A stretch of 64,000 nucleotides of DNA from a virus: positions 12,702-76,701 of the IMG/VR virus record IMGVR_UViG_3300025940_000007. One strand, 5' to 3'. Below, one piece after another: positions 11,494 through 54,688 of the stretch. How positions within the stretch are numbered: position 1 is the stretch's first letter; every line of letters starts with the position of its first letter. Under the pieces are notes generated by a model, which was not told where the DNA came from, did no database searches, and saw nothing but the letters and a program-made list of their open reading frames with translations. The translations under genes were made by a program, and so were the position numbers.

Positions 11494-11509
11494 GTTGATA
11501 TAAATCAAC
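11494..11509. promoter_or_regulatory. inverted repeat, putative operator, in the divergent cro/tas promoter region
   Basis: GTTGAT-ataa-ATCAAC. Confidence 0.5.
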
Positions 11510-11548
11510 CCGACCTTAACCCACGGAGAATCATCGCGCAAGAAAATG

Positions 11549-11584: not shown

Positions 11585-11653
11585 GCCGAGTAATCGGCAC
11601 GAGCCCCGGCCAATGTTCGGTTGAAACCCTATAAATCAATGCCGGGGCTCACC
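11585..11653 (+). ncRNA. solitary TIGR-like guide unit preceded by a GTAA-tetraloop hairpin
   Basis: gagccccggc-ca-ATGTTCGGT-tgaaaccct-ATAAATCAA-tg-ccggggctc (11601-11650). Confidence 0.85.
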
Positions 11654-13284: not shown

Positions 13285-13285
13285 T

Positions 13286-13774
13286 CGGTCGCCATCGTCC
13301 CGTTGAAAACCAACGCCTTGGTGCGACCGCGAGCCCCGGCCTGCTGCGCTGTGAAGCCCACGAGGGTGCCGCCGGGGCTCACCTATTCGAGATCGTCTGC
13401 AGCGATGCAGGCGAGAGCCAGAGACCACCTAACGCGCGGAGCCCATTATTGCTCTGTCTCTGGCTCACCAATTCAAGACACGGTCGCCTCAGTGCTTGTG
13501 AAGCCCAGAGATGGCATGCGACCGTAGAGCCACGGCCCGTTGTACTTGCGAAGACCAAAGGTCACTTGGCCGTGGCTCACCCATTCAAGATCACCGCCAG
13601 CGATGGCGGTGCGAGCCCCGGCCACACTGCTTGTGAAGCCCGTTCTCGGATTGCCGGGGCTCACCTAATTCGAACTACGGTCGCCACGATGCAGATGGAA
13701 ACCAACCAGCCGATGCGACCGCGAGCCCCGGCCACTCCTCGGATGGAAAACCCATGCGCTATTTGCCGGGGCTC
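13286..13774 (+). ncRNA. stem-loop TIGR-like array 1 (8 guide units and 2 empty GCGA hairpins)
   Basis: Alternating cggtcgc/gcgaccg and gagccccggc/gccggggctc stems, each enclosing CC(A)-N9-TGAAGCCCA-like-N9-TG. Confidence 0.9.
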
Positions 13775-14051
13775 ACCTCTTCTTCCGCTTACCGAAGATG
13801 TCGGGCCGAATCTCTTCGGGCGTCATTTCGATCAGCGGTGCAATATCGAGCACGTGGTGCGCGGGTACTTTATTCCACGCGGCTACGTTCTGGTGAGACA
13901 CATTGAGATGTCGAGCAATGACACTCGCAAAGCCGGGTTTGCTGAAGATCATCTTCATGACGTGATCGCGCTGCGAGTCACGTCGTTCGCTTGATCGTCT
14001 CATGATCTCGCCGCGCATAAAGCGCGCGGCCTCCACTGCTGTGCTGCTCAT
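13773..14051 (-). CDS. second Cro/YdaS-like regulator
   Basis: IARHLNVSHQNVAAWNKVPAHH...EEIRPDIFG; paralogous to 11228-11479. Confidence 0.8.
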   Translation of the reverse strand: MSSTAVEAARFMRGEIMRRSSERRDSQRDHVMKMIFSKPGFASVIARHLNVSHQNVAAWNKVPAHHVLDIAPLIEMTPEEIRPDIFGKRKKR

Positions 14052-15706: not shown

Positions 15707-15759
15707 GAGCCCCGGCTGTGGATCAGTTGAAGCCCTACCTACCTTTGCCGGGGCTCACC
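15707..15759 (+). ncRNA. solitary TIGR-like guide unit in the 5' UTR of recE
   Basis: gagccccggc-tg-TGGATCAGT-tgaagccct-ACCTACCTT-tg-ccggggctc. Confidence 0.8.
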
Positions 15760-15784: not shown

Positions 15785-16714
15785 ATGCAAGTGCGCAAGT
15801 GGGACGGACTCCCGATATCGAAGCCCGGTTGGGTCAGCGGAATTCCGATCGAACGCTATCACAGTGCCGGGATCTGCAACGGCCCGTCTGTGAGCTCTTC
15901 AAATCTGCGTCGGTGCTGGACGCACAGCCCCGCGCACATGTTCGCGCAGTGGGCAGAGAATCCGAACGCAGAGCCGAAAGAGGCGACGCGTCAGATGGTG
16001 CTCGGGCAGGCAGCGCATCACTTGCTGCTCGGTGAGGATGGCTTCTCAACAAAGTTCGTCGCGCAGCCGCCGGAATATCCGGACAAGAAAACTGGCGAGA
16101 AGAAAAAGTGGCACAACGGCGCCGAGTTTTGCAAGGCGTGGAACGCCAAGCAGATTGGCAAGACCATCGTGACCGTTGAGGAGTTGCAATCCATCATCGC
16201 GATGTCGCGCTCGCTCGCGCTGGAGCCGCTCGTCAAGGAAGGCCTGCTGACCGGCCACGTTGAGACGTCCGGATTCATTCGTGACGGCGAGACAGGTTTG
16301 TGGATCAAGGTCCGGCCCGACGTGATCCCGACCGATGGCGGCGACTTCGCGGATCTCAAAACCGCGAACGAGGTGACGACCGTTGCGCTGATGTCGGCGA
16401 TCCGGACCTACGCGCTCCACATGCAGGGTGCATTAATCTGGGAAGTCGCGGAGACGCTCGGCCAGCCGTTCGAGAGCTTCGTGTTGATGTTCATCGAGAC
16501 GCAGAATCCATACTGTGCACGCGTGGCGCCGATGGATGACAAGGATCTGAGTTTCGGGCGCCAGCAGAACCGCTTGATGCTGCGGACGATCAAGGGATGT
16601 ATGGAGGCGAACCACTTCCCGGGTCCGGGCGAGGGCGATCTGCGACCGCTGCCGCTGTCGAACGACGAGCGCTCGCGGATCGAGGAGCGTCTGAAATTGG
16701 AGAATGCATTATGA
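15785..16714 (+). CDS. RecE/exonuclease VIII-like PD-(D/E)xK nuclease (DUF3799 type)
   Basis: YH...SSSNL...SPAH, G.AAH.LLL, KVRPD...ADLKT, Y..H.Q motifs. Confidence 0.88.
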   Translation: MQVRKWDGLPISKPGWVSGIPIERYHSAGICNGPSVSSSNLRRCWTHSPAHMFAQWAENPNAEPKEATRQMVLGQAAHHLLLGEDGFSTKFVAQPPEYPDKKTGEKKKWHNGAEFCKAWNAKQIGKTIVTVEELQSIIAMSRSLALEPLVKEGLLTGHVETSGFIRDGETGLWIKVRPDVIPTDGGDFADLKTANEVTTVALMSAIRTYALHMQGALIWEVAETLGQPFESFVLMFIETQNPYCARVAPMDDKDLSFGRQQNRLMLRTIKGCMEANHFPGPGEGDLRPLPLSNDERSRIEERLKLENAL

Positions 16715-18378: not shown

Positions 18379-18449
18379 TCCGCCGCGAGGCGGAGGAGGC
18401 CCGGCCAGAGCGATGGTGAAACCCACAGTGACATTGCCGGGCCTCCACC
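18379..18449 (+). ncRNA. solitary TIGR-like guide unit (GCGA hairpin + guide) in the 5' UTR of recT
   Basis: ggaggcccggc-ca-GAGCGATGG-tgaaaccca-CAGTGACAT-tg-ccgggcctcc (18395-18446). Confidence 0.85.
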
Positions 18450-18470: not shown

Positions 18471-19490
18471 ATGGACATCAACGAAATCGAACGTCGCGTC
18501 GATCGCGCGATCGCGGCACCGATCCCGGTCAATGCGGATCTCGGCGGGCTCACGTTGGAAAACATGGGCCAAGTCATGGAGTTCGCGAAGCTCATGAGCG
18601 TCTCCGGCGCCGCTGTGCCCAAGTATCTGCGCGGCAATCCGGGCGCCTGTCTCGCCATCTGTTCGCGCGCGCTGCGGTGGAAGATGGACCCGTTCGCCGT
18701 GGCGGAAAAATCCTATCAAGTGATCAACAAGGGCGAGGAGCGCGTGGCGTTCGAGGCCCAGTTGGTTCATGCCGTGGTCACCGCGCGCGCACCGTTGAAG
18801 GGGCGCCTGCGTCATGAGATTATTGGAGAGGGCGACGATCGGCGATGCGTCGTATGGGGCACGTTCAAGAACGAAGATGCCCCGCACAAGTACACCAGCG
18901 AAACGCTCGGCAAACTGCGCGACGCCCGGGGCCGCAATGACTACGGCGCGGTGAAAGGCTCTCCGCTTTGGGATAATCAGCCCGAGGTGCAGTTGGCTTA
19001 TTCCGCCGTGCGCCAATGGTGCCGACTTTACGCGTCGGAAACGCTGCTCGGAGTCTACACTCCGGACGAGCTCGAAGACGGCAGCACGCCGAAAGACGTG
19101 ACACCGACCAAGACCGAGTTGCTGACGCAGCGCCTGAAAGATCAGAAGGCGCAGCATGCTGACACACGCAGGGGATTCGATGCTGACTACGTCGCCAAGC
19201 AGGCGGCGCTCAGTTCGATAATCGAAGGCGACGTCAATTCCGATGAAGCCGAGACAAAGGGAGAGAGAGATGACGGCGGTAGCAATGAGCCTGACGCTGC
19301 GCGAGGGGCGGACGGTGCTGGTGATCGACGGGATGGAGATCGAGACCAAGGCGGAAGCGAAGGCGGTCTCAACGATGATCAGTCAGTGGGCGGAGGGTCT
19401 GCCGGAGAGCAAGCCCCGGACGCCGAGGAAGGCGAAGAAGGCAGCGCGCCAAACCGCCAAGCGAAGCCGAGCCCCAAGGGCAAACGGTGA
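18471..19490 (+). CDS. RecT/Bet-like ssDNA annealing protein
   Basis: VPKYLRGNPGACLAI..A.RW.MDPFAVA, SPLW...P..QLAY.A.R.WCRLY..E.LLGVYT.DEL. Confidence 0.88.
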   Translation: MDINEIERRVDRAIAAPIPVNADLGGLTLENMGQVMEFAKLMSVSGAAVPKYLRGNPGACLAICSRALRWKMDPFAVAEKSYQVINKGEERVAFEAQLVHAVVTARAPLKGRLRHEIIGEGDDRRCVVWGTFKNEDAPHKYTSETLGKLRDARGRNDYGAVKGSPLWDNQPEVQLAYSAVRQWCRLYASETLLGVYTPDELEDGSTPKDVTPTKTELLTQRLKDQKAQHADTRRGFDADYVAKQAALSSIIEGDVNSDEAETKGERDDGGSNEPDAARGADGAGDRRDGDRDQGGSEGGLNDDQSVGGGSAGEQAPDAEEGEEGSAPNRQAKPSPKGKR

Positions 19491-19533: not shown

Positions 19534-19822
19534 TCCCGGCTATCTGGCTTGGCTGCGCAAGCAGCGATGCGCGTGTTGCCAACAGCCGCCGCCATGCGAT
19601 GCGGCTCATCTTCGAGCCTCATCGTTCGCGTACGGCAAGACGAATGGCATGGGGCAGAAGCCTGACGACAACTGGGCTCTGCCGTTAAAACACATGCATC
19701 ACATGGCGCAACACTACAGCGGCAATGAACTCGCATGGTGGGAGACGCACGGCGTCGCTGATCCGTTTGCGCTGGCGCAGAATTACTACGCCAGATATCT
19801 GAAACTCAAAGGAGCACCGTAA
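19499..19822 (+). CDS. DUF968-like HNH/Zn-finger protein
   Basis: YLAWLRKQRCACC...DAAH...GMGQKPDD..ALPL..HH..QH. Confidence 0.75.
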   Translation: MTLRQRRSRLSDPGYLAWLRKQRCACCQQPPPCDAAHLRASSFAYGKTNGMGQKPDDNWALPLKHMHHMAQHYSGNELAWWETHGVADPFALAQNYYARYLKLKGAP

Positions 19823-20030
19823 TCGGTCGCCTTGGCCATGATGAAACCCAGATGATCTTCGCGACCGACGAGCCCGGCCAAGCAGTAACTGGTATCCATT
19901 GAACTGGCGCCGGGCTCACCTATTCAAGATCGGTTGCCAGCGATTGAGTGAGAACCACAGATCGGTAAGCGACCGTAGAGCCTCGGCCAGCAATAGTCTG
20001 AAACCCATCGCACGAGTGCCGGGGCTCACC
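19823..20030 (+). ncRNA. stem-loop TIGR-like array 2 (4 guide units)
   Basis: Spacer pairs TGGCCATGA/GATGATCTT, AGCAGTAAC/TTGAACTGG, GCGATTGAG/CAGATCGGT, GCAATAGTC/TCGCACGAG in alternating stems. Confidence 0.88.
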
Positions 20031-23279: not shown

Positions 23280-23289
23280 CAATCCAGAT

Positions 23290-24030
23290 CGATCGCCATC
23301 GTACTGTTGCAACCCAACGAGCGAATGCGATCGCGAGCCCGGCCCGGTTATATTTGAAGCCCCCTATGCGGACGCCGGGCTCACCCTTTCGAATCGATCG
23401 CCGGTCAGTGAGTGCAAACCACAGAAGACTTGCGATCGCGAGCCCGGCCAATTCATCGATGAAGCCCAAAGCCGATATGCCGGGCTCACCCTTTCAAATC
23501 GGTCGCCTGATCAATCGTGATCTCCAAGGAAATCTTGCGACCGCGAGCCCGGCCTCTCGCCCTTTGAGGCCCACGTTGTTGATGCCGGGCTCACCCTTTC
23601 CAATCGCCAGCCATTTTGAAGGTGCAAACCCGAGCATGGATGCTGGCGAGAGCCGGGGCCACAACTGTCGTGCGATCCCGATCGCGGGTGCCCCGGCTCA
23701 CTCAATTCGAATCGGTCGCCAGACGTTGTGTGAGATCCCATCTGCACTTGCGACCGACGAGCCCGGCCCGTTCGCCCTTGATGCCCTTGAACCGTATGCC
23801 GGGCTCACTCTTTCGAAGATCGGTCGGCCCTCCGGTCGATGAAGCCCCCGGACCGATTGCTGACCGTAGAGCCCCGGCCCACGAGCGACTGAAGCCCACT
23901 GTCTGCGTGCCGGGGCTCACCTAACACGAGATCGGTCGCCGCCACCGCTGTGAGACCCACACGGCATCTGCGACCGCGAGCCCCGGCCACCGAGCACCTG
24001 AAGCCCAAACGAGCAGTGCCGGGGCTCACC
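23290..24030 (+). ncRNA. stem-loop TIGR-like array 3 (14 guide units in 7 tandem pairs, period about 107 nt)
   Basis: Strict alternation of cg(g/a)tcgc- and gagccc(c)ggc-type stems, each with two 9-nt variable spacers around a 9-nt loop repeat. Confidence 0.92.
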
Positions 24031-24065
24031 TTTCTTTCGACGCGTCAACGAGTTGGAGAACACTC

Positions 24066-24779: not shown

Positions 24780-25004
24780 TCAGTCCTCCGCTCGTTCGAT
24801 GAGACTGGCGATCTCGTAATCCAGCGAAGCGCGCCCGTCCCATCTGATGTAGACGTTGATCTTCCCAACACGCACAGCGGTGCCCCGCCTCGCGTACCAA
24901 TCGACGCGTTGCGCACGAACCATGTAAGTCTTGCTGTTGATGCGGGCGCCTTGCTCGGTCAGCTTGACCCGGTCGCCCCGCTGGAGGCGGTTCGTTCTGG
25001 CCAT
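24780..25004 (-). CDS. hypothetical protein; small hydrophobic ORFs follow at about 24598-24777 and 24407-24537
   Basis: ORF track; the downstream ORF MYFLVAAAVLIL... has two TM-like helices (holin candidate, unproven). Confidence 0.45.
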   Translation of the reverse strand: MARTNRLQRGDRVKLTEQGARINSKTYMVRAQRVDWYARRGTAVRVGKINVYIRWDGRASLDYEIASLIERAED

Positions 25005-29364: not shown

Positions 29365-32300
29365 GCAGCCCCGATGTCGGAGTAACTTGTCGCCCGTGCC
29401 TCGCGCACTTCGCGATCGGCTGATCGTCGCATCGATGAGCGCGCGAATTGTACCTCGTTGTCGTTGACCTTGAGATTGACGCGCTGCGTCACGTCGCGAT
29501 CTACAGGCGCCGCTGTTTCCGCTGGCTTTGGCTGCGCTTGACCCTCGATAGGCTTCGATTGTAGCGCTCCTTCGCCCTTCGGCTCATCGGCTGTGGCGGT
29601 TGCCGCCGCTGGTGCCGCCTGCGGTCGATTGGCATGATAGCGCTTCATGCCCTCCGGCGTCAGTTGCGTATGCACGTGCTTGGCGGTGGCCCATGCAGAC
29701 GGCCTGCGCACCTCATCGAGGATCTTGTAGTCCTGACCCTCGACCAGACCGCGCGACGCCATCTGCGCGCGGATCTTGGCCATCGCCGCATCGGCTTGTC
29801 TCTCAGTCTTGGCGCGGACGTCGAACGCCAGCGCGCGCGAATGCGAGGAGTGCGGATTGGCTATCGAAAGTTTGTGGTGCGGGCTGCGATAGCCAGACGT
29901 TACCGTCAGGCCAGCCCCTGACATATCGCCTGTCAGCGCATCGAGATTGCCCTTCGGCGTGCCGTCGCTGTTGAGCAACTGCCCCGTGGTCTCGGCTGGA
30001 CGCGGCACACGGGCGCCTGTCGCGACAGTTGATTCGCCTCCCGGCTGCACAGTGACTGGACCGGAGACCTGTGCTTTACCTCGCTGTGCGTTAACCCACC
30101 TTTCAGTGCCCGGTTGAATACCAAACATATTGCCGCCGACTTTGGTCATCTTGTTCGGGTCATAGTTCGGGTCGCCGACCGTTCCTTGATCGGTGAGGTA
30201 ATTGATTCTGTTAGACCCTCCCGAGAACACTTCCTTGTAGGCCTTGTCCCACAACTTTTGTTTCTCTGGAGTCCATGCGCTGTTGTACGCATCACGTTCA
30301 TGCTTCATCAATGGCCCTGAACCGGGATCACCGTGTAAACGCTTGAGCGGACCATAGAACTGACGCTTGCCTCTAGCATTCACAACCTGTTCTAGGGTCA
30401 AATTTCTGGACGCTGCGTAGTTCGACATTTGCTCCAAGTTGGCAGCTATGTTGCCGCCGCCTTCAGCCTGAAGCGTGCGGAAGATCTTCTGTTGGTTCTT
30501 GGGATCTTTCATCCATTCGGCATTGGATTGTTGAATGCGCGTCTTCATCACGTCTTCGTTGACGCGCTTACCTTGGTAGTCTCCTGCTGCCGTTCCGCCC
30601 GCCGTTGCCGCTGGCGCTGCTGTCTCATCGGAATCGGAAGACGACGTGCGCCCGCTGCTCGTGCGACCGCTGGTGCGTGGGATCAGACCTTGGTTGCCGT
30701 AGGACGTGCCACCGCCATAACCCTGCGGTCCACCCGGAGAGAATTGCGAGTAGCCGCCGCCAGACGCAGCACCGCCGCCGCCACCGAACGATGCGTTGTG
30801 GATGTTGCTGCGGAAGTCCGCAGGCAGATACAGCGAGTCAGAACTGCCACCATACGAGCTTCGCTGAGCGGGACCGGGAAGTTGTCCGGTGCCACGCGGG
30901 CCGAACTGAAGCGGATCACCGGGCTTCCAACCGGGAGGCACACCACCGGGTGGCGGGACATCCTCGCTCTTCTTTATCGCCTCATCGAGCGCCTTCTTCT
31001 GATCCTCCACAGCCTGCTGACCGGTCAGTCCACCCTCTGTGGCTTGGCCAAGCTGGTTGTTCATCAGCGGCGCGAGCGGATGGAAACCGTGCGGGCCAAC
31101 AAACGACAAAGCCGCCTTCTTGTATTCTCCCTTGTTGAGAAGATCGATCAGTTCTCCGATCCACTTCACGACACTGCCGAGCCGCTGCAATTCCTTGGTG
31201 ACCATCGCAATGATGTTCGGCACGCCCATTGTCACCATCAGGCGACCGAATTCGTCAGCGAGCAAACCGATCGATGCCGACAACGAGTCAACACCGCCGC
31301 CGGTCGCCTGCATCACCTTGGTGCCGTCGATCACCGCCTGCTGTCCATTGCCGAGATCTCGGATCAACTGGATTTTCTTGGCGATCTGGCCGTTGTTTTC
31401 TTCCTCCAGTTTCTTCAGGAGCAGGCGCTGCTTCACATCGATGTTGCGATAGAAGGCTTCCTTCTCGTGCAGCGGCATCGCCTTGATCAGGTTGACGATG
31501 TAGGCCTGTTGATCGCCGCCCTGCTTCTTGATGTTGTCGAGTTGCTCGGCCCAAATTTTATTCGGGATGCCCATCGCCTGCCCGAGATTGCTGGCTTGGC
31601 CGAACGTCTGCATCAACAGCCGGGCGCCGCGCGAGGTGTCGCCCATGATGTCGGTGGCGATACCGAGTTGAACACCCAGCCGCGCGATGCCGTCGGTGCC
31701 CTTGTAGCCAGCGTCCTGCGCCATCTGGCCGAGCTCGCCGCTGGTGCCGACCAGATCCTTCATGTCGATGTTGGTCTCGCGAACGATGCCCGCGAGCATT
31801 TCCATTGTCTCGTTGAACTGGGTCGCCGGGATATTCATGTTGCGCATGAAATCCGTGGTGACCTTCGCCAGATCTCCGGAGGTGGTGTTTCGCAGCCCCT
31901 TGGCGACGACCGCCAGCCGGGGGAATCTCCTGATCGCCTCATCCAGCGTGATGTTCAATCCGGTGCGGAGCTTGTCGGCGGATTCGAGCGCTTCATCGAA
32001 ATGGGTCCCGGTGACTTGCGCCGCCTTTCGCAGCGCCGCCTCGGACTCTCCAAGCGCCTCCTTGGTCGCCTTGGTCGCGTTCCCCAACTGAATCATCTTC
32101 CGCTCGCTCTCGGCAAAACCGAGGTACGAGCGGCGCGCGGCCTCGGCGGCGCCGATTAGCGACAGATGGCTCTTCAATACGCCTTGGATGGCGTTGTTGA
32201 CCTTCTGCGCCGCCGTGACTTGCTTGTTGGCGCCTTCTTCTGCGCCCTTGCCAGCATTCCTTGCAGCCGCCGCTGCATCATCGAGTGCCTTCCTGTGCTT

Positions 32301-37131: not shown

Positions 37132-37632
37132 TTACGCCTTCTTCTTGGCCTTGCCTGTCGCTTCCGCTTGGCTCGGTGCCACGTCCGGATTCTGCGGCGT
37201 GTCGCCGATCTCCACCGCGTCAACGATGCAGGGCTGCACCTCCGGATCGAGGCACGTCTCTCCGGTCATCTGGTACGACTTCGCCGGAGACAGAACGCGG
37301 CCCGCGAACATGCACGCCTTGCCGAGGGTGACCTGATAGACCTTCCCGGCAACGAAGGTTGGGATGGCGCGATCGCTCTTCTTCCACTCCGGCGGCGAGT
37401 CTTCCGACGGTGACGCCGGACCGCCGATCTGGATCACGCGATCATCGATCCATTCTCCCTTTCGCACCTCGCGCCGCGAGCCCTTGCCGTTGGCTGGCGC
37501 GTTCGGCATTGGCCCCGACGTTCCCGACGTCGAGCCCATCGAGCCGGGATCGAGTGCCGCGCGCGCCTTCGCTAGCGCAGCCTCGTCCATCGGCATGTTA
37601 ACGTTGCGTTGCGGAAATTCTTCTGTGGCCAT
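37132..37632 (-). CDS. hypothetical protein
   Basis: GGAG RBS; late operon. Confidence 0.6.
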   Translation of the reverse strand: MATEEFPQRNVNMPMDEAALAKARAALDPGSMGSTSGTSGPMPNAPANGKGSRREVRKGEWIDDRVIQIGGPASPSEDSPPEWKKSDRAIPTFVAGKVYQVTLGKACMFAGRVLSPAKSYQMTGETCLDPEVQPCIVDAVEIGDTPQNPDVAPSQAEATGKAKKKA

Positions 37633-37666
37633 TGTACAAGCTCCATGATTGTTTTAGATAGGGAAA

Positions 37667-37734
37667 GTGAGGGCGGGCCTTGGCCAAGAAGGTCATGAAA
37701 CCCATTCGACTGTTGTCTCTGGGCTCGCCCTCAC
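37667..37734 (+). ncRNA. solitary TIGR-like guide unit, antisense to the late operon
   Basis: gtgagggcgggcc...cca-AGAAGGTCA-tgaaaccca-TTCGACTGT-tg...gggctcgccctcac. Confidence 0.85.
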
Positions 37735-37737
37735 ACC

Positions 37738-40092
37738 TCAAGCAACAGCGACGTCGATGCGTTCGCCGACGAGATAACAGGCGTTCACGTTGTCCGTGGT
37801 GCCCTCCATGCGGATTTTGTACGCGGTGATCGCAGTGCCGCCGAGCGCTGCCAAATTCCACGTGCAGTGGCGCAGCAACACAGTCGGATCATCCGGATCG
37901 ACTTCGTCCTCGATCAGTGATGGCGTCCGCACACTGGTGTAGCCCGCACCAGTCAATAGGCGCGGAATGAAGGTGTGGTACGGCGCACCACGCCACGACT
38001 CTAGCCGGAAATCTCCGTAGACCGTCGTGACGGGTCCGGGCGTGGTCCGCGCGGTACTGATGTGGCGGAAGTCCGAGCGAGGCCGCGACGTCAGCGATCG
38101 CGAATTCGCCGCCACACCGAAGCCGGGCATTTCGTCGGTCGTGCCCACCAGTGTGATCCGGAATGGCAACAGCGGCGGCAGCGCAACGAGCGGGTTGGTG
38201 TCGTAGTAGCCGAGCGGCACCCACGCGCCGTTGACTTGCACCTCGAAATTGATCGTGGTGCCGGGCGGGCGCGTCGAGTCGAAGTTCAAATCGATCGCCG
38301 AGATACCGCCGTTCAATTCCAGCGACAGCAGTTGCGCGGTGCACTGCGTGGTGCGGAATTTCGCGAAGTAGAGCCGGAAAGAAAGATCCTTGGTGAGATC
38401 GCCGAGCGCCCACGCTCCATCGGTGGAAGTGAACATCGAGCCTTGCGCGAACTTGTTGTTGTGCACCAACGCGACGAAATGATTGCCGGGCGTCTGTAGG
38501 ACGAAGGCGTAACGCTGACCCTTCGCCAGATAGGTCGGCAGGAAGTCGAACTTGGTCGCGTTCGGTGACGGTCGCAGCAAGTCCGCAGGCTTGGTCGAGC
38601 GCGCAATCGTTCGCTCGAAATTCGGCGCACCGGCTTCGTTACATTCGCAGATCAGGCAGTGCACGTCGCCCGTTGCCGCGATGCGGGTGAAGAAGATATC
38701 GACGCCAGTCAGCCAGCCGCCCTGTGAATTGAGATAGGTCTGCGAGATCACCGAGCCCGACAAACCATCGACCGTGATGACTTGCCGCCAGTAATACGAG
38801 TCCACGATTTCATCGACCCAGAACTGCACGAGCCGGAGCACCGTGTGGTTCGGGTTGTCCATCACGTCGAGGATCTGGAACGTCTCGGTGCCGCGCGTCA
38901 GGATGTTGCGGATCGGATCGTAGATCAGATCGGTGTTCGGCGTGTAGCCGCCGACAGCCGCAGGAGGCATACCGACGTTCGTTCCGTAGTCGTGACCGGC
39001 TGGCGCGAACCACCAGACGCCGTTCGAGCAGACCACCATCGGCGTGCCCCAACGAATGCGCGTTCTGGTCTTGGCGCAGAGCTCCCACGAGATCGTTTGA
39101 TACTGATACTGGGAGATCGACAGTTCGGAATCCTTGCCGAGCACCTCGATGCGCACCACTTGGTCGTACACAGGCAGAACGAAGTTGGCCTGATTGATCA
39201 CCGCCGGGTCCATCGGGTTCAACAGCCCAAACTGCGCCTCGCGTTCGGCGGCGTTCGGGAAGCGAATACCCTCCTCGCACTTAGCGAGGTAATCCACGTT
39301 CTGCAGATCGGACTCGTCCGTGGTTAGGAAGTGATCGGCGCCCCACATCGAATAGGTGTCAGGCAGGCCAACCTTTTCCTTCACGCGCGCGACGTCGGTT
39401 GCGATCTTCAGCACGAACTTCATGCCAGCGGTGCCGTTCAAGCGCACAGCCAGCGCGGCCATGTCGGTCGCCAGTGTGTCGAGCCGTGACGCAGTCTGCG
39501 CACGCCATGCATCCATCTCGTTCAAGCGGTCATCGAGATCAGCAAGGTTCGGCGCCCGGTTCTCGTTCACCATCTGGATCGAGATGATGCCGGTGCTGTC
39601 GAGCAAGATCCAAGCAACCGCCAGCGTGTTCGATGCCACGCTCGGATGCTGCGGGTCCGGACCTTCGGCGCCGATCACGGTGCTGATGTTGGCCCAGCGA
39701 CGGCTTTCGGTGGAGACCACACGCGCGACGGTGGCACGCGTCACCGGATCAGTCAGGAAGGTTCTCGGCTCGGTGTCGGTCTCGATCTCTTGGCCCCAGA
39801 CCACCACGCCGACATATCGACGCGTCACCACCGGGAGCACGCCGAGCAAGTCGAGAGAGGCGCCGCCCTCGCTGTCGTTATAGAACACCAAGCCGTTATG
39901 GTAGAGCCGCCCGTTGCCCACGGTGACCACCGCTGGCGCCGTCTGCACCGTGGTGAAGCCCGTGTACGCCATGCTCGGGATCAAGGTATCCACAACGACA
40001 TGGTCGAAAGATGCACGCGGGAAGAGGCCGAAGTTATTGAAGTCTTCGACAGTCACCTTCTGCCAGTCTTGGATGTTTACCTTGCGTTCCAT
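37738..40092 (-). CDS. large baseplate/tail-associated virion protein
   Basis: 784 aa downstream of the gpI-like gene; SVISQT...GWLTGVDIFF beta-rich C-terminus. Confidence 0.7.
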   Translation of the reverse strand: MERKVNIQDWQKVTVEDFNNFGLFPRASFDHVVVDTLIPSMAYTGFTTVQTAPAVVTVGNGRLYHNGLVFYNDSEGGASLDLLGVLPVVTRRYVGVVVWGQEIETDTEPRTFLTDPVTRATVARVVSTESRRWANISTVIGAEGPDPQHPSVASNTLAVAWILLDSTGIISIQMVNENRAPNLADLDDRLNEMDAWRAQTASRLDTLATDMAALAVRLNGTAGMKFVLKIATDVARVKEKVGLPDTYSMWGADHFLTTDESDLQNVDYLAKCEEGIRFPNAAEREAQFGLLNPMDPAVINQANFVLPVYDQVVRIEVLGKDSELSISQYQYQTISWELCAKTRTRIRWGTPMVVCSNGVWWFAPAGHDYGTNVGMPPAAVGGYTPNTDLIYDPIRNILTRGTETFQILDVMDNPNHTVLRLVQFWVDEIVDSYYWRQVITVDGLSGSVISQTYLNSQGGWLTGVDIFFTRIAATGDVHCLICECNEAGAPNFERTIARSTKPADLLRPSPNATKFDFLPTYLAKGQRYAFVLQTPGNHFVALVHNNKFAQGSMFTSTDGAWALGDLTKDLSFRLYFAKFRTTQCTAQLLSLELNGGISAIDLNFDSTRPPGTTINFEVQVNGAWVPLGYYDTNPLVALPPLLPFRITLVGTTDEMPGFGVAANSRSLTSRPRSDFRHISTARTTPGPVTTVYGDFRLESWRGAPYHTFIPRLLTGAGYTSVRTPSLIEDEVDPDDPTVLLRHCTWNLAALGGTAITAYKIRMEGTTDNVNACYLVGERIDVAVA

Positions 40093-40105
40093 TTTGCTGC
40101 CTCTC

Positions 40106-41569
40106 CTAGAGTAGGTTGAAGACCTGTTGGTCGATAGTTGTCTCGTTGTACGCGCGTTCGCGAAGCTCGATCAGGCGCGTCGGGTCGAATGCCGTTCGCA
40201 CGCGGTCGCGCAGCGCTTGTGAAGTGACGACAGCACGGCATGCGCGATCGAAGTCGCTCATGTCGATGGTGCTGGCGAAGTAGTTATCGTCTACGGTGAT
40301 GCCTTCATCGGCGAACCACGACCACCAATCGTCATCGGCATTGAGCTTGATCATGAGATCGGCGGTGTAGGCAGGCCACGACACGTAATCGACGCCGACG
40401 AAAGAGACGCCGCCCGTGATCGTGCCGACAATCGCCGGGTCATAGAGGAAGACGCGATCCGCCAGCATGCGCGCCGCGTCGTAGCCAGCATCGGCGTAGT
40501 AGACGATAGGCACCGGCTGCGTCGGTATCGGCGGCGGCTGCGTCGGCAAACCTGACGGCGGATACGCGATCGGATGCTCCGGATGCGGATCGGGAATTAT
40601 AATCGGATGCTCCGGATGCGGCAGATCGCTCGGGTTGACAATGTTGCGGCTGTCGCTCCAGTCACCGACGAAATAGAAACTGTTGCCCCAGCCGATGTCG
40701 CTCTCGCGCTCGTAGCGCACGTCGATCGGCTCCATGCCGGGCAGCACCGTGTCGAGATGCAGTTGGCTCTGTTCGTGGCTGTAGCTGCCATCGATGCGCA
40801 CCGTGATCAGTTTTGGCTTCACTGTCTCGGCGCAAACGAACTGCTCGTCGTTGACGAAATCCTCGGTGCCCATGTAGGCGGGACCAGCGAGCCCGGGGAT
40901 CGCGATCCGCTCGAAGTCCACCGAGGTGACGCCGTTGATCTCTTTCGTGAAGGTGTAGATCTGCAGCGGAATGTCTTGACCGCGCACTCGCAGATACGCC
41001 TTGCGCCCGTGCAGTGCCTCGCCGTCATCGAGCCCGACGAAATCATTCACGCCGCCATCGCGCACGTACATGACATCGACGCCGTCCCAGCCGATGCCTT
41101 CGTAGAAGGTGATCCGCACCTCGGGCAGAAGATGTATCCACGCGTCGTAGGCTTCCTTCGACATCGACGGTGAGGCAAAGAAACACTGCGGTGGTCGCAG
41201 CGCTTGCTGGATGGTGTAGCCGGGAGGTCCAACGAAATCGCGCCCGGAATAGTTGAGCGCCATCTCGATGCCGTCTTGGGTGCCGCGCAGCGACTTGTAT
41301 TCGAACTGACGCGCGACCCATTCGCGCTGCGTGCTCTCGCTCCAGCCGTCCTCCCACAGCATGACGCCCATTGCGTATCCAAGATACGGGAGGTTGTTCA
41401 CGCTGATCGCGTACGGGTCCCATTGATCGTGAATGATCTCGGCGTAGGTGCCGATCAGCCGTTCGCCATCGACGTCGGCCATCGCCTTTTCGAGGCCTGA
41501 CGCCGCACGATAGAGCAACTTCGCACCGGGATATTGGATGATCCCTTCGGTGACGATGTCGCTGCTCAT
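40106..41569 (-). CDS. P2 gpI-like baseplate/tail formation protein
   Basis: LEKAMA, WDP......LPYL..AMGV..W...WSE..QR.......K..RGT. Confidence 0.85.
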   Translation of the reverse strand: MSSDIVTEGIIQYPGAKLLYRAASGLEKAMADVDGERLIGTYAEIIHDQWDPYAISVNNLPYLGYAMGVMLWEDGWSESTQREWVARQFEYKSLRGTQDGIEMALNYSGRDFVGPPGYTIQQALRPPQCFFASPSMSKEAYDAWIHLLPEVRITFYEGIGWDGVDVMYVRDGGVNDFVGLDDGEALHGRKAYLRVRGQDIPLQIYTFTKEINGVTSVDFERIAIPGLAGPAYMGTEDFVNDEQFVCAETVKPKLITVRIDGSYSHEQSQLHLDTVLPGMEPIDVRYERESDIGWGNSFYFVGDWSDSRNIVNPSDLPHPEHPIIIPDPHPEHPIAYPPSGLPTQPPPIPTQPVPIVYYADAGYDAARMLADRVFLYDPAIVGTITGGVSFVGVDYVSWPAYTADLMIKLNADDDWWSWFADEGITVDDNYFASTIDMSDFDRACRAVVTSQALRDRVRTAFDPTRLIELRERAYNETTIDQQVFNLL

Positions 41570-42525
41570 AGGGCACGTCCAGCATTGCGCACGGTGACTT
41601 GCGTGACCTTGATGACCCAATCCATCGCCACAAACACGTCGTCTTCAGGCAAGAGGATATCGACGTGATGCACGCCGGTCAGACGACACGCGGCATGGAT
41701 CGCGGTGTGGGTGTGATCGTGGCCTAACCAGTACTGATCGTTGACCAGCGTCGCGAGGTTGTTGACGATCTGCTTCATCGTCGTGTCGGCGTTGGCGCCG
41801 GGATAGAACCAGATGTCGAGCTTGTACTCGATCTCGCGGATCTTCGGTGGATTGACCGAGATCACGTCGGTGAGCCCCTGCCGTGACAGCGATTGAATGT
41901 ACGCGCGGATCGTCACCAACTCCTGATCGGTCGGCTTCGGATCGGCGGGCGGCTCTTTCAGACACGTGATCAGAATTGTCGGGTAGTAGTCATGTTGAAC
42001 ACTGCGGATCGCGGTGACATCGCGCAGGCTCGGCATCGCGGTTAGCGCCCAGAATTCGTACGCCTCCGCCGTGCCGTGCGGGCTCAGCGTGTTCGGCGAG
42101 AGCCAGATCCGGCGCCGGTAGCGATCGTCGCTTTCGTTCGGCAGGCGAGGCACGCCGCCGGGATAGCGCGATGCAATGGCGTCGAGATCGGTGCCGATCG
42201 CATAGGCCAGCGTGACCGAGCGCGCCGCCTGATTGACGCGGTCGCGCAACATCAACTCGAAATACGAGCAGGCCTCTTGGTTGATCTTGATCGGATCGAA
42301 CTCAAGGTTCTCGACGTCATACTGCGCCGCCGTTGGCGGATCGTAATATGCCCACAGTTGCTTCAGCCGCCCCATCCGCTCGGAGAGGATCGCCTCGACG
42401 TCGATCTTCTCCAGCACGATCATCGGCTGCAGATTCGCAGGCAGGATGACCGAGATGCGATCGGTCAGCCGGTCAGCCAGCGCCTGCCCTGCCTGCGAGA
42501 TGTTGCCGAAACTGGTGTCGCTCAT
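41566..42525 (-). CDS. baseplate assembly protein J
   Basis: E.DPI...QEA..Y.EL.LR.RVN.AA....LAYA.GTDLD, ESDDRYRRR, G...AYEFWA. Confidence 0.92.
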   Translation of the reverse strand: MSDTSFGNISQAGQALADRLTDRISVILPANLQPMIVLEKIDVEAILSERMGRLKQLWAYYDPPTAAQYDVENLEFDPIKINQEACSYFELMLRDRVNQAARSVTLAYAIGTDLDAIASRYPGGVPRLPNESDDRYRRRIWLSPNTLSPHGTAEAYEFWALTAMPSLRDVTAIRSVQHDYYPTILITCLKEPPADPKPTDQELVTIRAYIQSLSRQGLTDVISVNPPKIREIEYKLDIWFYPGANADTTMKQIVNNLATLVNDQYWLGHDHTHTAIHAACRLTGVHHVDILLPEDDVFVAMDWVIKVTQVTVRNAGRAL

Positions 42526-43094
42526 AGTGCGCTCCCGGGCGGGATGTTAGGTGTGGTGCCGATGCCGCCGGGAGGTGCGCCAGCGATGTAACCCGCTTGG
42601 CGTTCCCAGATGTTATAGCCGCGCGAGACCAGACCAACTGCGCGCCTGACTTGCGGGTCGTTGTTGCCGAGGTGGCCGCGTGGTCGGTAGACGCCTTCCA
42701 TCGCCGTGGTGAGCTTGCCAGTGCGGAGCTCCTCCGGCGACGTCAGCATTGAGCCATCACCACGCACGCCCGTGCGCACGCGCTGAATGCGGTAGTTCGG
42801 TTCGTGCAGATCGAGCGCGGTGGCGATCGCCCAATAAAATCTGCAGATCGTCGTCTCGGTCGCGTTCTCGCCGATCAGATGCGGCACGTAGCAACCGACC
42901 CAGCGCCGCAGCACGCGCTCGTGATACTTCGTGGAGAAGATCAGGAGCATCGATTGGATGACGTGATCCCACCCGGTGAGAACCTTCCCGGTATATCGAT
43001 CCATACCGATGCGCACGGGATTGAGGACGATGCGGCCAAATCTGAGATCCGGCCACATGTCGAGCGTTGGATCGTAGACGTAATCCCCCGCCAT
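42522..43094 (-). CDS. baseplate wedge protein (gpW/gp25-like)
   Basis: GMDR.TGK.L.GWDHV.QS...I.ST....RV.RR, EP..RI. Confidence 0.88.
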   Translation of the reverse strand: MAGDYVYDPTLDMWPDLRFGRIVLNPVRIGMDRYTGKVLTGWDHVIQSMLLIFSTKYHERVLRRWVGCYVPHLIGENATETTICRFYWAIATALDLHEPNYRIQRVRTGVRGDGSMLTSPEELRTGKLTTAMEGVYRPRGHLGNNDPQVRRAVGLVSRGYNIWERQAGYIAGAPPGGIGTTPNIPPGSAL

Positions 43095-43097
43095 CGA

Positions 43098-43559
43098 TCA
43101 GGCCTTCGAAGTCGTCGCTGCCGCGCTCTTCGTCTCGGCCTTCTGTTCGGCTTTCGGCTTGCCGTTCTTGCCCTTCGATGCGGCCTTGCGGCGAAGGCTG
43201 CGCGTGAGTTTTGCGGGCTGGCCAGCCATCCCCGGATGACCGGACTGGATCTTGCGATCGTATCGCGGGATGCGCCCGGGTCGGGCGTCGTTGTCTTCGC
43301 TGCGCCCGCGCGTGATCTGCCCGAGCAACTTCTTGTGCGCTGCGCTGATTTCCCCGACCGGCTTCTCGCCGACGATGCCCTGATCGATCCAATATTGAAC
43401 TTGCTGCGTCACCGCGAGCACGTGGTTGGTATCGTCCTTCGGATTGCCCTTGTCGTCCCTGTCCTGCAGCACGCGCAGGCCGCCGAAGGTGTCGGAGACA
43501 TTGGGATCGTAGAGATAAAACTTCTGCAGAATGCGGGGAGTTCTAACCATTGCTGCCAT
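43098..43559 (-). CDS. hypothetical protein
   Basis: GGAG RBS; late operon. Confidence 0.6.
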   Translation of the reverse strand: MAAMVRTPRILQKFYLYDPNVSDTFGGLRVLQDRDDKGNPKDDTNHVLAVTQQVQYWIDQGIVGEKPVGEISAAHKKLLGQITRGRSEDNDARPGRIPRYDRKIQSGHPGMAGQPAKLTRSLRRKAASKGKNGKPKAEQKAETKSAAATTSKA

Positions 43560-43580
43560 GTTGGCCTCTCCTGTTGAGAT

Positions 43581-44285
43581 TTACGCGTCGTCGTTCTTGA
43601 TAGGGTCTTTGCCGAGAATCGGCGGCTGCGAGAAAATGATCTTACCCTTGGCGACCACCACCCAGTCACTCCCCATTCGGATCTTCGCGCCATCTTTGTG
43701 CGAGGCGACGCGCGAATCTTTTCCGACGCGGAAGGTGTGGCCGCCATCTTTGTTCATCCGAGCTTTCATCACAGCTTTATCGCCGCCGACGTGCCCTTTT
43801 TTCTGTTGCTTCTGTCCGCCGCCGCCACCACCGCTGCCGCTTTGCCCGCCGGATTGCTGGCCTTCCTGCTTCTTGTCGTCATCGGGCTGCAGCCAGTGAT
43901 CGTGACCGTCCTTGGTGGTCTTGCCGCGCAGATCGTCTAGCTGATAGCTCTCCTCGTCCTGCCCCGAGCCGTCGGCATGCTCGGGCGTCTTGAAATCCTT
44001 GTTGGGTGCGTAGGGCATGAGCATCCCCTGAGAGATGTCACCGCCGGGCGAGAAGATGGAAAGGTTCTGTCCCTTCTTGTAAAACCGCTGCTCTCTGGCG
44101 CCGCCCCTCATGTTGTTCGTGTTGAGCCACGGAGAGAGGATGTCTTTTCCGTCCTTGTCCTTGCCGAGGCTCATGCGGAGCTTGGTGCCCTTGACCTCAT
44201 GCACGGTGCCCTTCTGCGTCTGTTGCGACATCTGTCGCCGCAGATCCGCGATCTGTCCAAGCAAGCGCTGGTAGTCGTCGGCCAT
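43581..44285 (-). CDS. baseplate assembly protein V (spike)-like
   Basis: GTV.EV....R..G.....SPW.......G.........GQ....SPGGD..QG. Confidence 0.8.
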   Translation of the reverse strand: MADDYQRLLGQIADLRRQMSQQTQKGTVHEVKGTKLRMSLGKDKDGKDILSPWLNTNNMRGGAREQRFYKKGQNLSIFSPGGDISQGMLMPYAPNKDFKTPEHADGSGQDEESYQLDDLRGKTTKDGHDHWLQPDDDKKQEGQQSGGQSGSGGGGGGQKQQKKGHVGGDKAVMKARMNKDGGHTFRVGKDSRVASHKDGAKIRMGSDWVVVAKGKIIFSQPPILGKDPIKNDDA

Positions 44286-44292
44286 GCGCGCC

Positions 44293-44913
44293 TCACTTCA
44301 ATTCGATTTGGATCTTCGTCGTCATCTTCTTCAGGATCTCCTGCGCCATCTGGCGCAGCGTGACGTCGCGGTTCTGTCGCTGGCCTGATCGTTGCGACGG
44401 GCTGGTGCCGCTCGTGGTGGACATCGTCACCGGCAGGCGCTTGCCCTTCGGTGCGTACGGCATGATCACGCATCGGCAGTGCGGATGCTTCGGGATGTGC
44501 TCGCGCGCGGCCTCGATCGGCATCGGGCCTGCAGCGGCGAGCTCTTCACAGTCTTGGCAAACAAGGTCGTCATCCTGATTGACGATGATCACCAGCGTCT
44601 TGGGGCGTTGGGTGCCGAAGTCGCGGCTCTCGCGGCGCCCCTCCAGCGTGGTCGGGTCGTCTTCCAGAAGCCGGTTGTTGACGACGATATCGTATTTCAA
44701 ATCGTTCTTGGTCGCGCGCTTCACCCGCATCAGGCCGCGCACTTGCTCGACAGCGAGCCCGGTTTCCTTGGAGATGTCCCGGGCGAGAATGGAAACCAGA
44801 CCGTCACCGACTTCATTGAGACCGACCGAGATGATTGGCTTCGTCGCCTTCTCCGCCCTGTCCAGCTTCCGCGAATATTCTTCAACGGCGCTGGTGTCGA
44901 TCTTGATCTTCAT
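44293..44913 (-). CDS. neck/minor tail protein with a MuF-like Cys motif
   Basis: C-terminal DD.VC.DC...A..GP......IP.HP.CRC, also present in 62105-63217. Confidence 0.6.
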   Translation of the reverse strand: MKIKIDTSAVEEYSRKLDRAEKATKPIISVGLNEVGDGLVSILARDISKETGLAVEQVRGLMRVKRATKNDLKYDIVVNNRLLEDDPTTLEGRRESRDFGTQRPKTLVIIVNQDDDLVCQDCEELAAAGPMPIEAAREHIPKHPHCRCVIMPYAPKGKRLPVTMSTTSGTSPSQRSGQRQNRDVTLRQMAQEILKKMTTKIQIELK

Positions 44914-45839
44914 TCGACCTCGCCATCGGCGACGGCTTTGTCCTTCTTCTCGATCGGCACCGTGGTGGCCACGTTGGTCTCGATGGTCTGCTCATCGACC
45001 AGACCGACGTCCTCGTTCTTTTCCATATCGATGTCATCAAACCCGATCTTGCGAACAATCGGCGCCCCGCCTTGCTTGTCGGTGAGATCGTCACCGTACT
45101 GCGTTGCGAAGGGCACCATGCTGGAGGCAAGCGGAGCGAGCCCAATGGCGCGCAGCCCGAGCCGACGCACACCTAATGCAGCTTGCACCCGCTCCCATTC
45201 CGGCGCCCCCTCGCGCGAGGCAAGCGCCGTACAGATCTCTGCAACATGCTCCATGTCGGCTTCCGGGTGCCTGTTGGAGGTTTCGACAAACTGCATGATC
45301 GGGTGATCCTCTGGGATCGGCTCGCCCGGCGGCAGATCGCTGATCACGTCACACACGATTGAAACTTGTCGCGCTGCCCACCTACGGTCGCGGTCGCTAC
45401 TGGCGCCCCTCTGGCCGGTCAGCCGCTCGATCCGCAGCACGAAACCCTTGAGCAGTTCGGCCCACTCGTTCTGCGGATCGCCCCACAGCGCCGCCAGCGC
45501 CTGCGTTTCGACCATGTCAAGCGCGAGCTCCATACCCTCATCCGTCAGCGGGATCTTGATCTGCGCATCGCCTGTGACGCCCTCGACCTTGGAGGCGACA
45601 CCGATCTCCAGCACCAGCGCGAGCTCGCGGCGCATGCCGTAGATGTCTGTCCCGTTCTGCTCGCTGCGGTTATCCGCGTCGGTGTACACGACGATGTACG
45701 GCTTGGCCGCTTCGTTGAGCATCAGCGCCTGCGACAGCGGCGTGTTGTCCGAATCAAATACGCGCTTATCAGCCCAAGTCTGACCGCGCAAGGCCGCCAC
45801 TGCTGTGAGCCGGGTCAACATTCTGATGACAGACATCAA
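44910..45839 (-). CDS. tail completion/terminator-like protein
   Basis: R..AV.AL...T.A..RVFDS, PYIVVYTD; position. Confidence 0.6.
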   Translation of the reverse strand: MMSVIRMLTRLTAVAALRGQTWADKRVFDSDNTPLSQALMLNEAAKPYIVVYTDADNRSEQNGTDIYGMRRELALVLEIGVASKVEGVTGDAQIKIPLTDEGMELALDMVETQALAALWGDPQNEWAELLKGFVLRIERLTGQRGASSDRDRRWAARQVSIVCDVISDLPPGEPIPEDHPIMQFVETSNRHPEADMEHVAEICTALASREGAPEWERVQAALGVRRLGLRAIGLAPLASSMVPFATQYGDDLTDKQGGAPIVRKIGFDDIDMEKNEDVGLVDEQTIETNVATTVPIEKKDKAVADGEVE

Positions 45840-45860
45840 GCATCCTTGTATGGTCGAAGG

Positions 45861-45934
45861 GTGAGGGCGGGATCAGTGGTTTGGCCTCATCCATCCTGAA
45901 GCCCATGTAGTCTGTGCCGTGATCTCGCCCTCAC
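45861..45934 (+). ncRNA. solitary TIGR-like guide unit, antisense to the late operon
   Basis: gtgagggcgggatca...cct-CATCCATCC-tgaagccca-TGTAGTCTG-tg...tgatctcgccctcac. Confidence 0.85.
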
Positions 45935-45937
45935 ACT

Positions 45938-46351
45938 TCAATCTTCCAGCACGCGAACCATGTGCACATCCCACCGCCCGCTATAATCGGGATGAATGAA
46001 TGTGACCTCGTGCGTCTGGTTGCGATCAGGGAAGAACACGCGATCGCCCTTCTTCAAATCGCACTGCAGAATCGGCTCGTGCCGGATCGACAGCATCGTG
46101 TCCACCGTCGCTTGCCGCGTGATCATTGGCCCGCCCACGCCCTCGGTGGCGCCGCGCGTGGTATCGAAGATCCCCGTTGCGATCACCTCGACGCGGTCCG
46201 GATCAGGCACGCTCGCACGGTAGCCGCTCTTTTCCGTCCGCATCGGTTTCAGCACAACAGGTTCGCCGAACACGCTATCGACGCGGAAATCTACCGGCTT
46301 GCTGTCGTTGACGGTCGCCATGTTAGCCGTGCTCGATGGTTGCAGAGACAA
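45938..46351 (-). CDS. head-tail joining/closure protein
   Basis: VD.VFGE.V...P, KKGDRV, V..IHPD..GR; position. Confidence 0.65.
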   Translation of the reverse strand: MSLQPSSTANMATVNDSKPVDFRVDSVFGEPVVLKPMRTEKSGYRASVPDPDRVEVIATGIFDTTRGATEGVGGPMITRQATVDTMLSIRHEPILQCDLKKGDRVFFPDRNQTHEVTFIHPDYSGRWDVHMVRVLED

Positions 46352-54143: not shown

Positions 54144-54688
54144 TGCAGCGCCTTAACTACATAAGTTGATATTGCATTGATACGGCGGAACGAGATGATG
54201 AAGCGATCTCCGTTCGCCGTCGTCAGTAAGTCTCCTGTGTTGGTGCCGATCGTGAAGCCGGAAAATGTAATCGCACCAGCGGTCCCGCTGTTGGTCACCA
54301 TGAGATCAATCGCGCAATCACTGGTCGCCGAGTTGATGGTGAAGGCTCCGTTGTTGGCGATGTACTGATAATTCCCGAGCAGCGCATTGATGGTGATGTT
54401 GCCTGCCGCCAGCGGCGCCGGAGCAAATAAGAAGCCGCCCGTGAGTGTCTGTCCGCCCGCCACCGCGAGCCGTGTGCTGTCGGTCGGGTGAACGTGGTCC
54501 TCGCGCGAATAGGCGTCCGAGATGCCGCCATCAGCGGCGCCATTCATCAGCGGAAGGGAATTGCTCGGCGATGAGTTGAGCCTGACCGTCCATTTTTCGC
54601 CGTCCCATGTATAGGTCGAGATTCCATCGACCGGTGGCGATGGATAGGTCTGGCCGATGCTCGGCGCGTCTGGAAAATTCAAACTCAT
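54140..54688 (-). CDS. tail fibre-associated protein
   Basis: MSLNFPDAP.IGQ...WDGEKW N-terminus, YSREDHVHPTD motif. Confidence 0.75.
   Translation of the reverse strand: MSLNFPDAPSIGQTYPSPPVDGISTYTWDGEKWTVRLNSSPSNSLPLMNGAADGGISDAYSREDHVHPTDSTRLAVAGGQTLTGGFLFAPAPLAAGNITINALLGNYQYIANNGAFTINSATSDCAIDLMVTNSGTAGAITFSGFTIGTNTGDLLTTANGDRFIISFRRINAISTYVVKALQ

Follow-up and report, generated by a model that had tools for sequence, protein, structure and literature searches.

The closest described relatives of the elements considered here are the guide units of the stem-loop TIGR-TasA systems (Faure et al. 2025, PMC12045711; Xu et al. 2026, bioRxiv 10.64898/2026.09.09.750476; Guan et al. 2026, bioRxiv 10.64898/2026.08.11.744272). 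These systems combine a Nop-domain Tas protein that lacks a nuclease with arrays of short guide units: two spacers of 8-12 nucleotides (nt) are set between conserved short box motifs and surrounded by a palindromic stem, and the units lie upstream, downstream and inside the tas gene (PMC12045711; bioRxiv 10.64898/2026.09.09.750476). One spacer pairs with one DNA strand and the second with the other, over a single contiguous site published as 18 bp. The phage of viral record IMGVR_UViG_3300025940_000007 (76.7 kb, ~90% complete; "the window" is the whole stretch analysed, the 64,000 nt at bases 12702-76701 of that record) is alike in these respects. Two of its guide units, here called A (37667-37734, + strand) and B (45861-45934, + strand), depart from the pattern: each is solitary, lies 24-33 kb away from tas and antisense in the late operon, and is furnished with a promoter-like site of its own and an extended outer stem. 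The published work leaves natural targets undetermined; for units A and B candidates can be named, namely silent-codon variants of the gene adjacent to each unit, probably recognized as 17 bp with a shared central base pair rather than as 18 bp.

Two solitary guide units in the late operon

The early genes of this phage are read from the + strand as far as ~25 kb and its late genes from the - strand between 25 and 64 kb. An earlier inspection of the DNA without database searches (the sequence-only reading) had placed two guide units on the + strand between - strand late genes, 24 and 33 kb from tas, and that is where they are. Three nt separate each from the stop codon of its upstream neighbour in the operon (37738-40092 for unit A, 45938-46351 for unit B); the measured distances to tas are 24.4 and 32.6 kb, and both units are single and on the strand opposite the local genes. 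The tandem arrangement beside or inside tas that characterizes stem-loop TIGR-Tas arrays is accordingly not theirs. Units A and B have the outer stem GTGAGGGCGGG / CTCGCCCTCAC in common, and both fit GGCC-A-N9-TGAARCCC-A-N9-TG, a pattern with a chance expectation of 0 matches. In unit A, the outer stem GTGAGGGCGGGCC/GGCTCGCCCTCAC, the box-like GGCC-A and the terminal TG accompany spacer A (AGAAGGTCA, 37687-37695), the loop TGAAACCC (37696-37703) and spacer B (TTCGACTGT, 37705-37713); the corresponding parts of unit B are spacer A CATCCATCC (45888-45896), loop TGAAGCCC (45897-45904) and spacer B TGTAGTCTG (45906-45914). The stems are 13-14 pairs long, including one G-U, and both units fold more stably than their shuffles (z = -3.5 for A and -4.9 for B).

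They also have company. More than 30 units with the same core lie on the + strand of the window, where a strict version of the core (GGCC-N10-TGAARCCCA-N9-TG) has eight matches, all on that strand, against none in 100 shuffles. Across 30 units other than A and B the stem covaries: paired cells make up 89%, as opposed to 58% in shuffles. When a covariance model made from those 30 is run over the late region, unit B comes top, at 17.2 bits (E = 0.035), and unit A takes fourth place, at 14.4 bits (E = 0.17), both on the + strand; the information content of the model is low, and the extended stems do not align to it. Scans with Rfam and for tRNA genes gave no match. The sequence evidence supports the view that A and B genuinely belong to the phage's TIGR-Tas system as solitary guide units.

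Could they be something simpler, hairpins with only the look of guides that serve the late (- strand) mRNA in cis, to stabilise it, to mark it for processing or to attenuate it? The reverse strand does fold stably (-34 and -39 kcal/mol), and the position, exactly at gene ends, suits such a role. The core motif, however, is strand-specific and stands on the + strand, as in all the other units; a U-run is not consistently found downstream; and neither the correspondence between spacers and genes (see below) nor the promoter-like sites on the + strand would be explained. We consider cis-acting hairpins extremely improbable.

The promoter-like sites had been described in the sequence-only reading as weak, and the hexamers are as given there. 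TTGTAC-17-TAGATA (37632-37660, +) ends 6 nt before the stem of unit A and overlaps the start codon region of the next gene in the operon (37132-37632, -); ATGACA-17-TATGGT (45826-45854, +) likewise ends 6 nt before the stem of unit B, with its -35 element within the first codons of the next gene there (44910-45836, -, 309-aa product). Taken singly such sites carry little weight (one found against 2.5 expected in 10 kb). Taken as a set of six antisense units (the two in the window and one each in the viral sequences G006, G007, G008 and G012), they do better: the -35/-10 pair ends 4-6 nt before the stem in every case, and the mean promoter score, 7.9, exceeds both that of random genome positions (5.2) and that of shuffles of the same 45 nt (6.15; P about 5e-5), the significance belonging to the six as a set. 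It would appear that a single guide unit can be a gene in its own right, driven by its own promoter at a great distance from tas.

What do these junctions look like in related phages? The gap that holds unit A (37633-37737) measures 105 nt and that of unit B (45837-45937) 101 nt. At 47 related loci the junction after the homologue of the 784-aa gene next to unit A measures about 12-30 nt and contains nothing but a ribosome-binding site, without a hairpin; at 11 related loci the homologues of the 137-aa and 309-aa genes flanking unit B overlap (ATGA) or stand ~12 nt apart, again with no hairpin. These comparisons support the cassette-like character that had been proposed for A and B: they are inserts of roughly 85-100 bp, absent from all sampled relatives. 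(A word on sampling, which applies throughout: each cassette site is occupied in one genome only, many of the related loci are redundant metagenome contigs, and gene calls in the other phages are crude, being based on GC content at third codon positions.) Each insert supplies the TGA stop of the upstream gene at one end; at its other end a ribosome-binding site, which in the case of unit A may or may not derive from the insert, precedes the downstream gene. Read in the late-gene sense, each cassette begins TGA-(G/A)GT-GTGAGGGCG (37726-37740; 45926-45940), and the cassette stem itself holds a second TGA in another frame. In close relatives with the same C-terminus, the gene next to unit A ends in TAA.

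A Tas gene is absent from five relatives, four of them 92-100% complete, and real units are absent from four whole Tas-less relatives (G001-G004). The same outer stem enclosing a TIGR interior recurs in three other viral contigs, where, to judge from the flanking genes, the cassettes occupy junctions different from those in the window; one of the three, G006, has ~35 units and a Tas gene at 59-61% identity. A metagenome scan for the outer stem returned two contigs only, both already known, and a megablast search against deposited phages found no match. The complete 78-kb phage G012 (IMGVR_UViG_3300021406_000012), whose Tas is about 48% identical, also has solitary units, at 24838-24901, 31426-31540 and 11261-11322, far from its tas gene; at least one of them is antisense between two co-oriented genes and abuts a stop, preceded by TTGCCA-17-TATTTG and with a 14/17 near-site at a distance of 180 nt.

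Near-targets in the adjacent genes

That each guide matches the gene beside it was the central claim of the sequence-only reading. It stands in one geometry: spacer A (9 nt) followed by the reverse complement (rc) of spacer B (9 nt), with one base shared between the two, which makes 17 bp and is written A+rc(B) in what follows. It fails when the spacers are joined without overlap: with gaps of 0-2 or 0-20, in four arrangements, scores stayed at chance level in the window, in four unit-bearing phage records (the whole genome of this phage and three contigs) and in the Tas-less relatives. In the A+rc(B) geometry the guide of unit A predicts AGAAGGTCACAGTCGAA, and its own gene reads AGAAGGTGACTGTCGAA at 40045-40061 (- strand): 15/17, in codons 11-16 (QKVTVE), at a distance of 2.3 kb from the unit. 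Unit B predicts CATCCATCCAGACTACA and its gene reads CATTCATCCCGATTATA at 45982-45998 (- strand): 13/17, over F-IHPDY-S from residue 118. All six mismatches, two for unit A and four for unit B, fall at synonymous third-codon positions; the carrier's allele does differ from its guide, as had been suggested, and at silent positions only.

Several controls bear on this. No decoy among 470 17-mers reaches 15/17 in gene A; one of them encodes a five-residue peptide of protein A, and none a five-residue peptide of protein B. When six Tas phages are taken together, 18 units have the pentapeptide that they predict in frame within 3 kb, as against 1-5 for seven control arrangements; at the nucleotide level, and within the same distance, 14 units find a site of at least 14/17, as against 3 for each control. 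Self matches stop short of perfection: among 117 units, the best match lying within 3 kb of the unit is never above 15/17, and a search of this phage's entire genome likewise turned up no self site better than 15/17. In 18 of 33 units spacer A and spacer B end in complementary bases, where a quarter would be expected. A single spacer matches at 9/10 within 250 nt for 3 of 5 late units and 6 of 64 others, which lends slight support only. (A contiguous 13/14 match of unit B, read as rc(A)+B, was set aside: it partly overlaps the true site and is not a separate signal.) As in the published systems, the spacers seem to recognize a single contiguous stretch of DNA, one on each strand, because only A+rc(B) is enriched nearby, in frame and in relatives. 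This spacer order probably also agrees with published statements that stacking at the unwinding junction involves the first guide nucleotide to pair (bioRxiv 10.64898/2026.08.11.744272) and that cleavage leaves 3' overhangs (PMC12045711).

Why should a guide miss its own gene at wobble positions and nowhere else? Pairing with the adjacent gene's family appears to be under selection, because the guides differ from their own gene only at silent positions, to which functionless drift would not be confined. The same argument bears on the notion that the near-matches are footprints of guide genesis, that is, that spacers were copied from nearby DNA and that subsequent silent drift or allele replacement has left solitary units without a current target. 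Such a history would fit the closeness of guide and matching gene in 18 units of six phages, and the published accounts leave the origin of TIGR spacers unexplained (PMC12045711; bioRxiv 10.64898/2026.09.09.750476). Unconstrained drift, however, should have hit first and second codon positions too, and all six differences are silent; the promoter-like sites and the exact core geometry have been retained; and the phage's own alleles are no closer to the guides than those of distant relatives. Footprints of genesis are, in our judgement, a distinctly improbable explanation.

A guide might, on the other hand, act on its own late gene in spite of the wobbles, with TasA serving as a programmable repressor or roadblock that times late expression. 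TasA proteins are known to act as RNA-guided repressors of transcription (bioRxiv 10.64898/2026.09.09.750476), and the own site of unit A differs from the guide only at spacer positions A8 and B7, near the 3' ends of the spacers. A further unit, in a leader just upstream of the tas operon (11601-11650), has a near-site beside a Cro-like gene, in a divergent promoter region, which also suits regulation of the phage by itself. Self-regulation nevertheless sits badly with a genome in which no own site exceeds 15/17 while relatives offer 16-17/17. Linked co-evolution should keep the self match of a regulator perfect. The four mismatches of unit B include A4, in the published seed, and B5, the cleavage position, and the sites lie within coding regions (codons 11-16 in the one gene, near the 3' end in the other) rather than at promoters. 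Self-regulation of the late genes is on balance unlikely. The near-site of the leader unit merits description for its own sake: at 11499-11516, ~100 nt upstream of the unit and 20 nt from the start of the Cro/YdaS-like helix-turn-helix gene (11228-11479, -), it matches spacer B at 9/9 and spacer A at 6/9, and it may be an operator for RNA-guided autoregulation.

Alleles of related phages and a proposed effect on rivals

If the guides are not made for their own genes, for whose genes are they made? At the unit A site, 51 cassette-less loci could be compared: two are perfect (L062, L078), ten have one mismatch and 21 have two. At the unit B site the best relative reaches 16/17 (L037) and five reach 15/17. 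Perfect targets in cassette-less relatives, as the sequence-only reading had foreseen, are thus on hand for unit A, in two instances, and none was found among the relatives for unit B, whose overlap-geometry site, extended by the flanking codon, likewise has no exact match in the viral collection. The accompanying idea, that presence of the cassette should go with mismatched alleles and its absence with perfect ones, did not come out clearly in these loci: most cassette-less relatives also have at least two mismatches (39 of the 51 loci for unit A). Over nine other phage genomes, six of this phage's guides find a site of at least 16/17 under A+rc(B), as against 0, 1 and 0 for controls. When the viral collection was searched exactly with 18-mers made without overlap, unit B drew a blank and unit A matched only unrelated contigs of low GC.

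Two matches should be described individually. The unit at the 3' end of tas (13226-13277), whose guide is one of those six, predicts CACTTCTCGCCGTCCCA, which is found perfect, 17/17, in the Tas-less relative G001 (IMGVR_UViG_3300042821_000052) around 14068; its own near-sites are in two paralogous late genes, at ~54591 (15/17) and ~56984, each with the peptide WDGEK and 13/15 codon-aligned nt. The 22-nt unit A site with its flanks has one exact match in the bacterial genome collection, at 2520-2541 of L200 (JAAYAB010000190.1), a Bacillota metagenome-assembled genome; this was rejected as a chance match to an unrelated 588-aa protein that happens to contain DGQKVTVEE, about 0.07 chance matches being expected.

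The presumed trans-acting effector is the product of tasA (12313-13284, +), a 323-aa coiled-coil plus Nop protein. Its family profile matches solved TasR 9mty (E = 2e-6) and TasH (E = 2e-3); in an AlphaFold model (pLDDT 81) residues 1-42 are disordered and the remainder is helical, and the ten best fold matches in the PDB are all TasH or TasR, followed by the IS621 recombinase. On this evidence the genome that carries the guide units also encodes a Nop-domain Tas protein. The model has no RuvC, HNH or other nuclease domain and no room for one, and because it lacks RuvC and HNH the protein is assigned to TasA. For the 214-aa gene upstream of tas, Pfam gave no match and the Atlas model is poor; a partner nuclease did not come to light.

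Targeting of relatives with sparing of self would seem the most economical account, because the phage's own sites reach at most 15/17 and those of relatives 16-17/17. That the guides serve allele-specific targeting of related phages, each guide being linked to an immune allele, has in our estimation about an even chance of being right; guide and allele are regarded as a linked pair because the guide adjoins the allele that would be immune to it. The scheme would run as follows. The units would be independent tigRNA genes of a stem-loop TIGR-TasA system, each an insert at a normally tight late-gene junction and each directed against the late operon. Transcription would start from the sigma-70-like promoter at the base of the extended stem, and the processed stem-loop RNA would be loaded in trans by TasA encoded 24-33 kb away. 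The two 9-nt spacers would then pair with opposite strands of one 17-bp site, sharing its central base pair; the site is a stretch of the adjacent gene written in other synonymous codons, so that the guide would fit relatives' alleles, some of them perfectly, and the own copy would be spared by its two or four wobble mismatches. In mixed infection or superinfection TasA would bind and block rival alleles as a roadblock to transcription, replication or packaging, and tight linkage would make of guide and immune allele a poison-antidote pair rarely split by recombination. Transcription, loading, allele discrimination and the effect on rivals are steps that we infer; the repressor activity of TasA proteins makes an effector action of this kind plausible.

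A number of points weigh against this proposal. TasA has no nuclease. Blocking a rival's late transcription would not by itself be obviously harmful to it, as structural proteins are shared in mixed infection, and for that reason a cis effect on replication or packaging, or action from a prophage, must be assumed; no integrase was found among the open reading frames scanned, which leaves a lysogenic setting unsupported. The own alleles show about the same divergence from the guides as those of the average relative (15/17 against a median of 15 for unit A, 13/17 against a mean of about 13.8 for unit B). For unit A perfect targets are few (2 of 51 loci), and for unit B the relatives sampled had none. 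Finally, unit A might bind its own gene after all, since assays of TasR tolerate mismatches near the spacer edges (PMC12045711) and there are only two here.

Might the cassettes home? Guide-directed damage or stalling could be followed by RecE/RecT-like repair that copies the resistant allele and the cassette into the rival. The variable presence of a cassette at an otherwise tight junction, the linkage of guide to mismatched allele, the perfect targets in two cassette-less relatives and the recurrence of this outer stem in cassettes that other phages have at different junctions are all in keeping with homing or an allele drive. Exonuclease VIII-like and RecT-like proteins are encoded, a recombination pair that is the phage's own because both genes are present in its genome, and the layout resembles that of free-standing homing endonucleases with localized marker exclusion, as far as the citing article describes them (Belle et al. 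2002, as cited in PMC13096335). Homing, raised as a possibility in the sequence-only reading, nonetheless lacks an enzyme if it is to be driven by breaks: a nuclease domain is missing from TasA, a partner nuclease did not turn up, the 214-aa gene being uninformative, and evidence of copying did not emerge. The target of unit A lies 2.3 kb from its cassette, own alleles are not unusually diverged, most cassette-less alleles are mismatched as well, and spread is not documented at sites occupied in one genome each. True homing is, for these reasons, quite unlikely. (The two recombination genes have guide units of their own: solitary sense-strand units stand in the leader of the exonuclease VIII-like gene (15785-16714), at 15707-15756, and in the leader of the RecT-like gene (18471-19490), at 18395-18446.)

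Some elements of homing can be kept without a break. Units A and B could be nuclease-free, RNA-only selfish modules of ~100 bp, whose distant TasA stalls or disables rival alleles of the neighbour gene and whose welded immune allele gains in frequency in mixed infection. This stronger version of targeting is speculative, and we would assign it a low though by no means negligible probability. If it were true, the modules would constitute a poison-antidote or homing-like drive, and their dispersed insertion sites would record movement and spacer gain of single TIGR units.

As to the neighbourhood, the gene next to unit A (37738-40092, -; 784 aa) belongs to PHROG 17470, of unknown function, and stands beside a Tail_P2_I baseplate-type gene; that next to unit B (45938-46351, -; 137 aa) has a weak Pfam match to Phage_attach, below the cut-off. 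A GcrA-like cell-cycle regulator gene at 10759-11253 hints at an alphaproteobacterial host. Two late genes contain long collagen-like triplet repeats (within 54685-56583 and 59463-61628), which give false matches to the guide-unit pattern, for example at 56690-56708 and 60472.

Comparison with known systems

The remainder of the unit family, together with TasA, fits the published description of stem-loop TIGR arrays. Three arrays with a 105-nt period (13284-13780, 19822-20030 and 23288-24031) are built of two alternating hairpin types, one with the stem TCGGTCGC and the other with the stem GAGCCCCGGC, each with a separate spacer pair; this pairing of hairpins in one repeat brings to mind the two loops of IS110 bridge RNAs. 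Further single units are found in the leaders of early genes, and two lie inside the tas reading frame itself, one in the lysine-rich N-terminal region (12391-12442) and one at the 3' end (13226-13277), matching the intragenic tigRNAs described in 2026.

What is it all for? According to the TIGR-Tas papers of 2025-2026, neither the natural targets of the spacers nor the origin of new units is known. This phage provides concrete candidate targets with statistical support and suggests a 17-bp, shared-base targeting geometry. The question of what TIGR systems do in nature could thereby be turned into experiments on allele discrimination, phage interference and biased inheritance.

Short guide elements that are carried by a virus and match genes of its relatives have a counterpart in virus-borne mini-CRISPR arrays, which belong to another RNA-guided family and rely on host Cas nucleases. 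Medvedeva et al. (2019, Nat Commun) reportedly found spacers in such arrays directed against closely related viruses and read them as weapons of inter-virus conflict; we know of no description, among these arrays, of a guide linked to an adjacent immune allele.

Linkage of that kind does appear among the free-standing homing endonucleases of T-even phages, the Seg and Mob proteins of "intronless homing", to the extent that the article citing them sets them out (Belle et al. 2002, as cited in PMC13096335). These too are intergenic, selfish-looking inserts, present in some relatives and absent from others; the recognized site is in a neighbouring gene, and the carrier's allele is altered there. 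The phage cassettes differ in having no open reading frame and no endonuclease: their specificity would reside in a 70-nt RNA that makes use of a distant, nuclease-less protein. The likeness is one of sequence arrangement; any cleavage, co-conversion or biased inheritance brought about by the cassettes would be conjecture.

A last parallel is provided by the WHO elements of Torulaspora yeasts (Osborne, Monnin and Wolfe 2026, bioRxiv 10.64898/2026.08.13.744650), which stand beside an essential host gene and are linked to a version of the gene that escapes them, the sensitivity of alleles being variable. In the case of units A and B the element would consist of a guide RNA gene only, and resistance would amount to a few silent substitutions.

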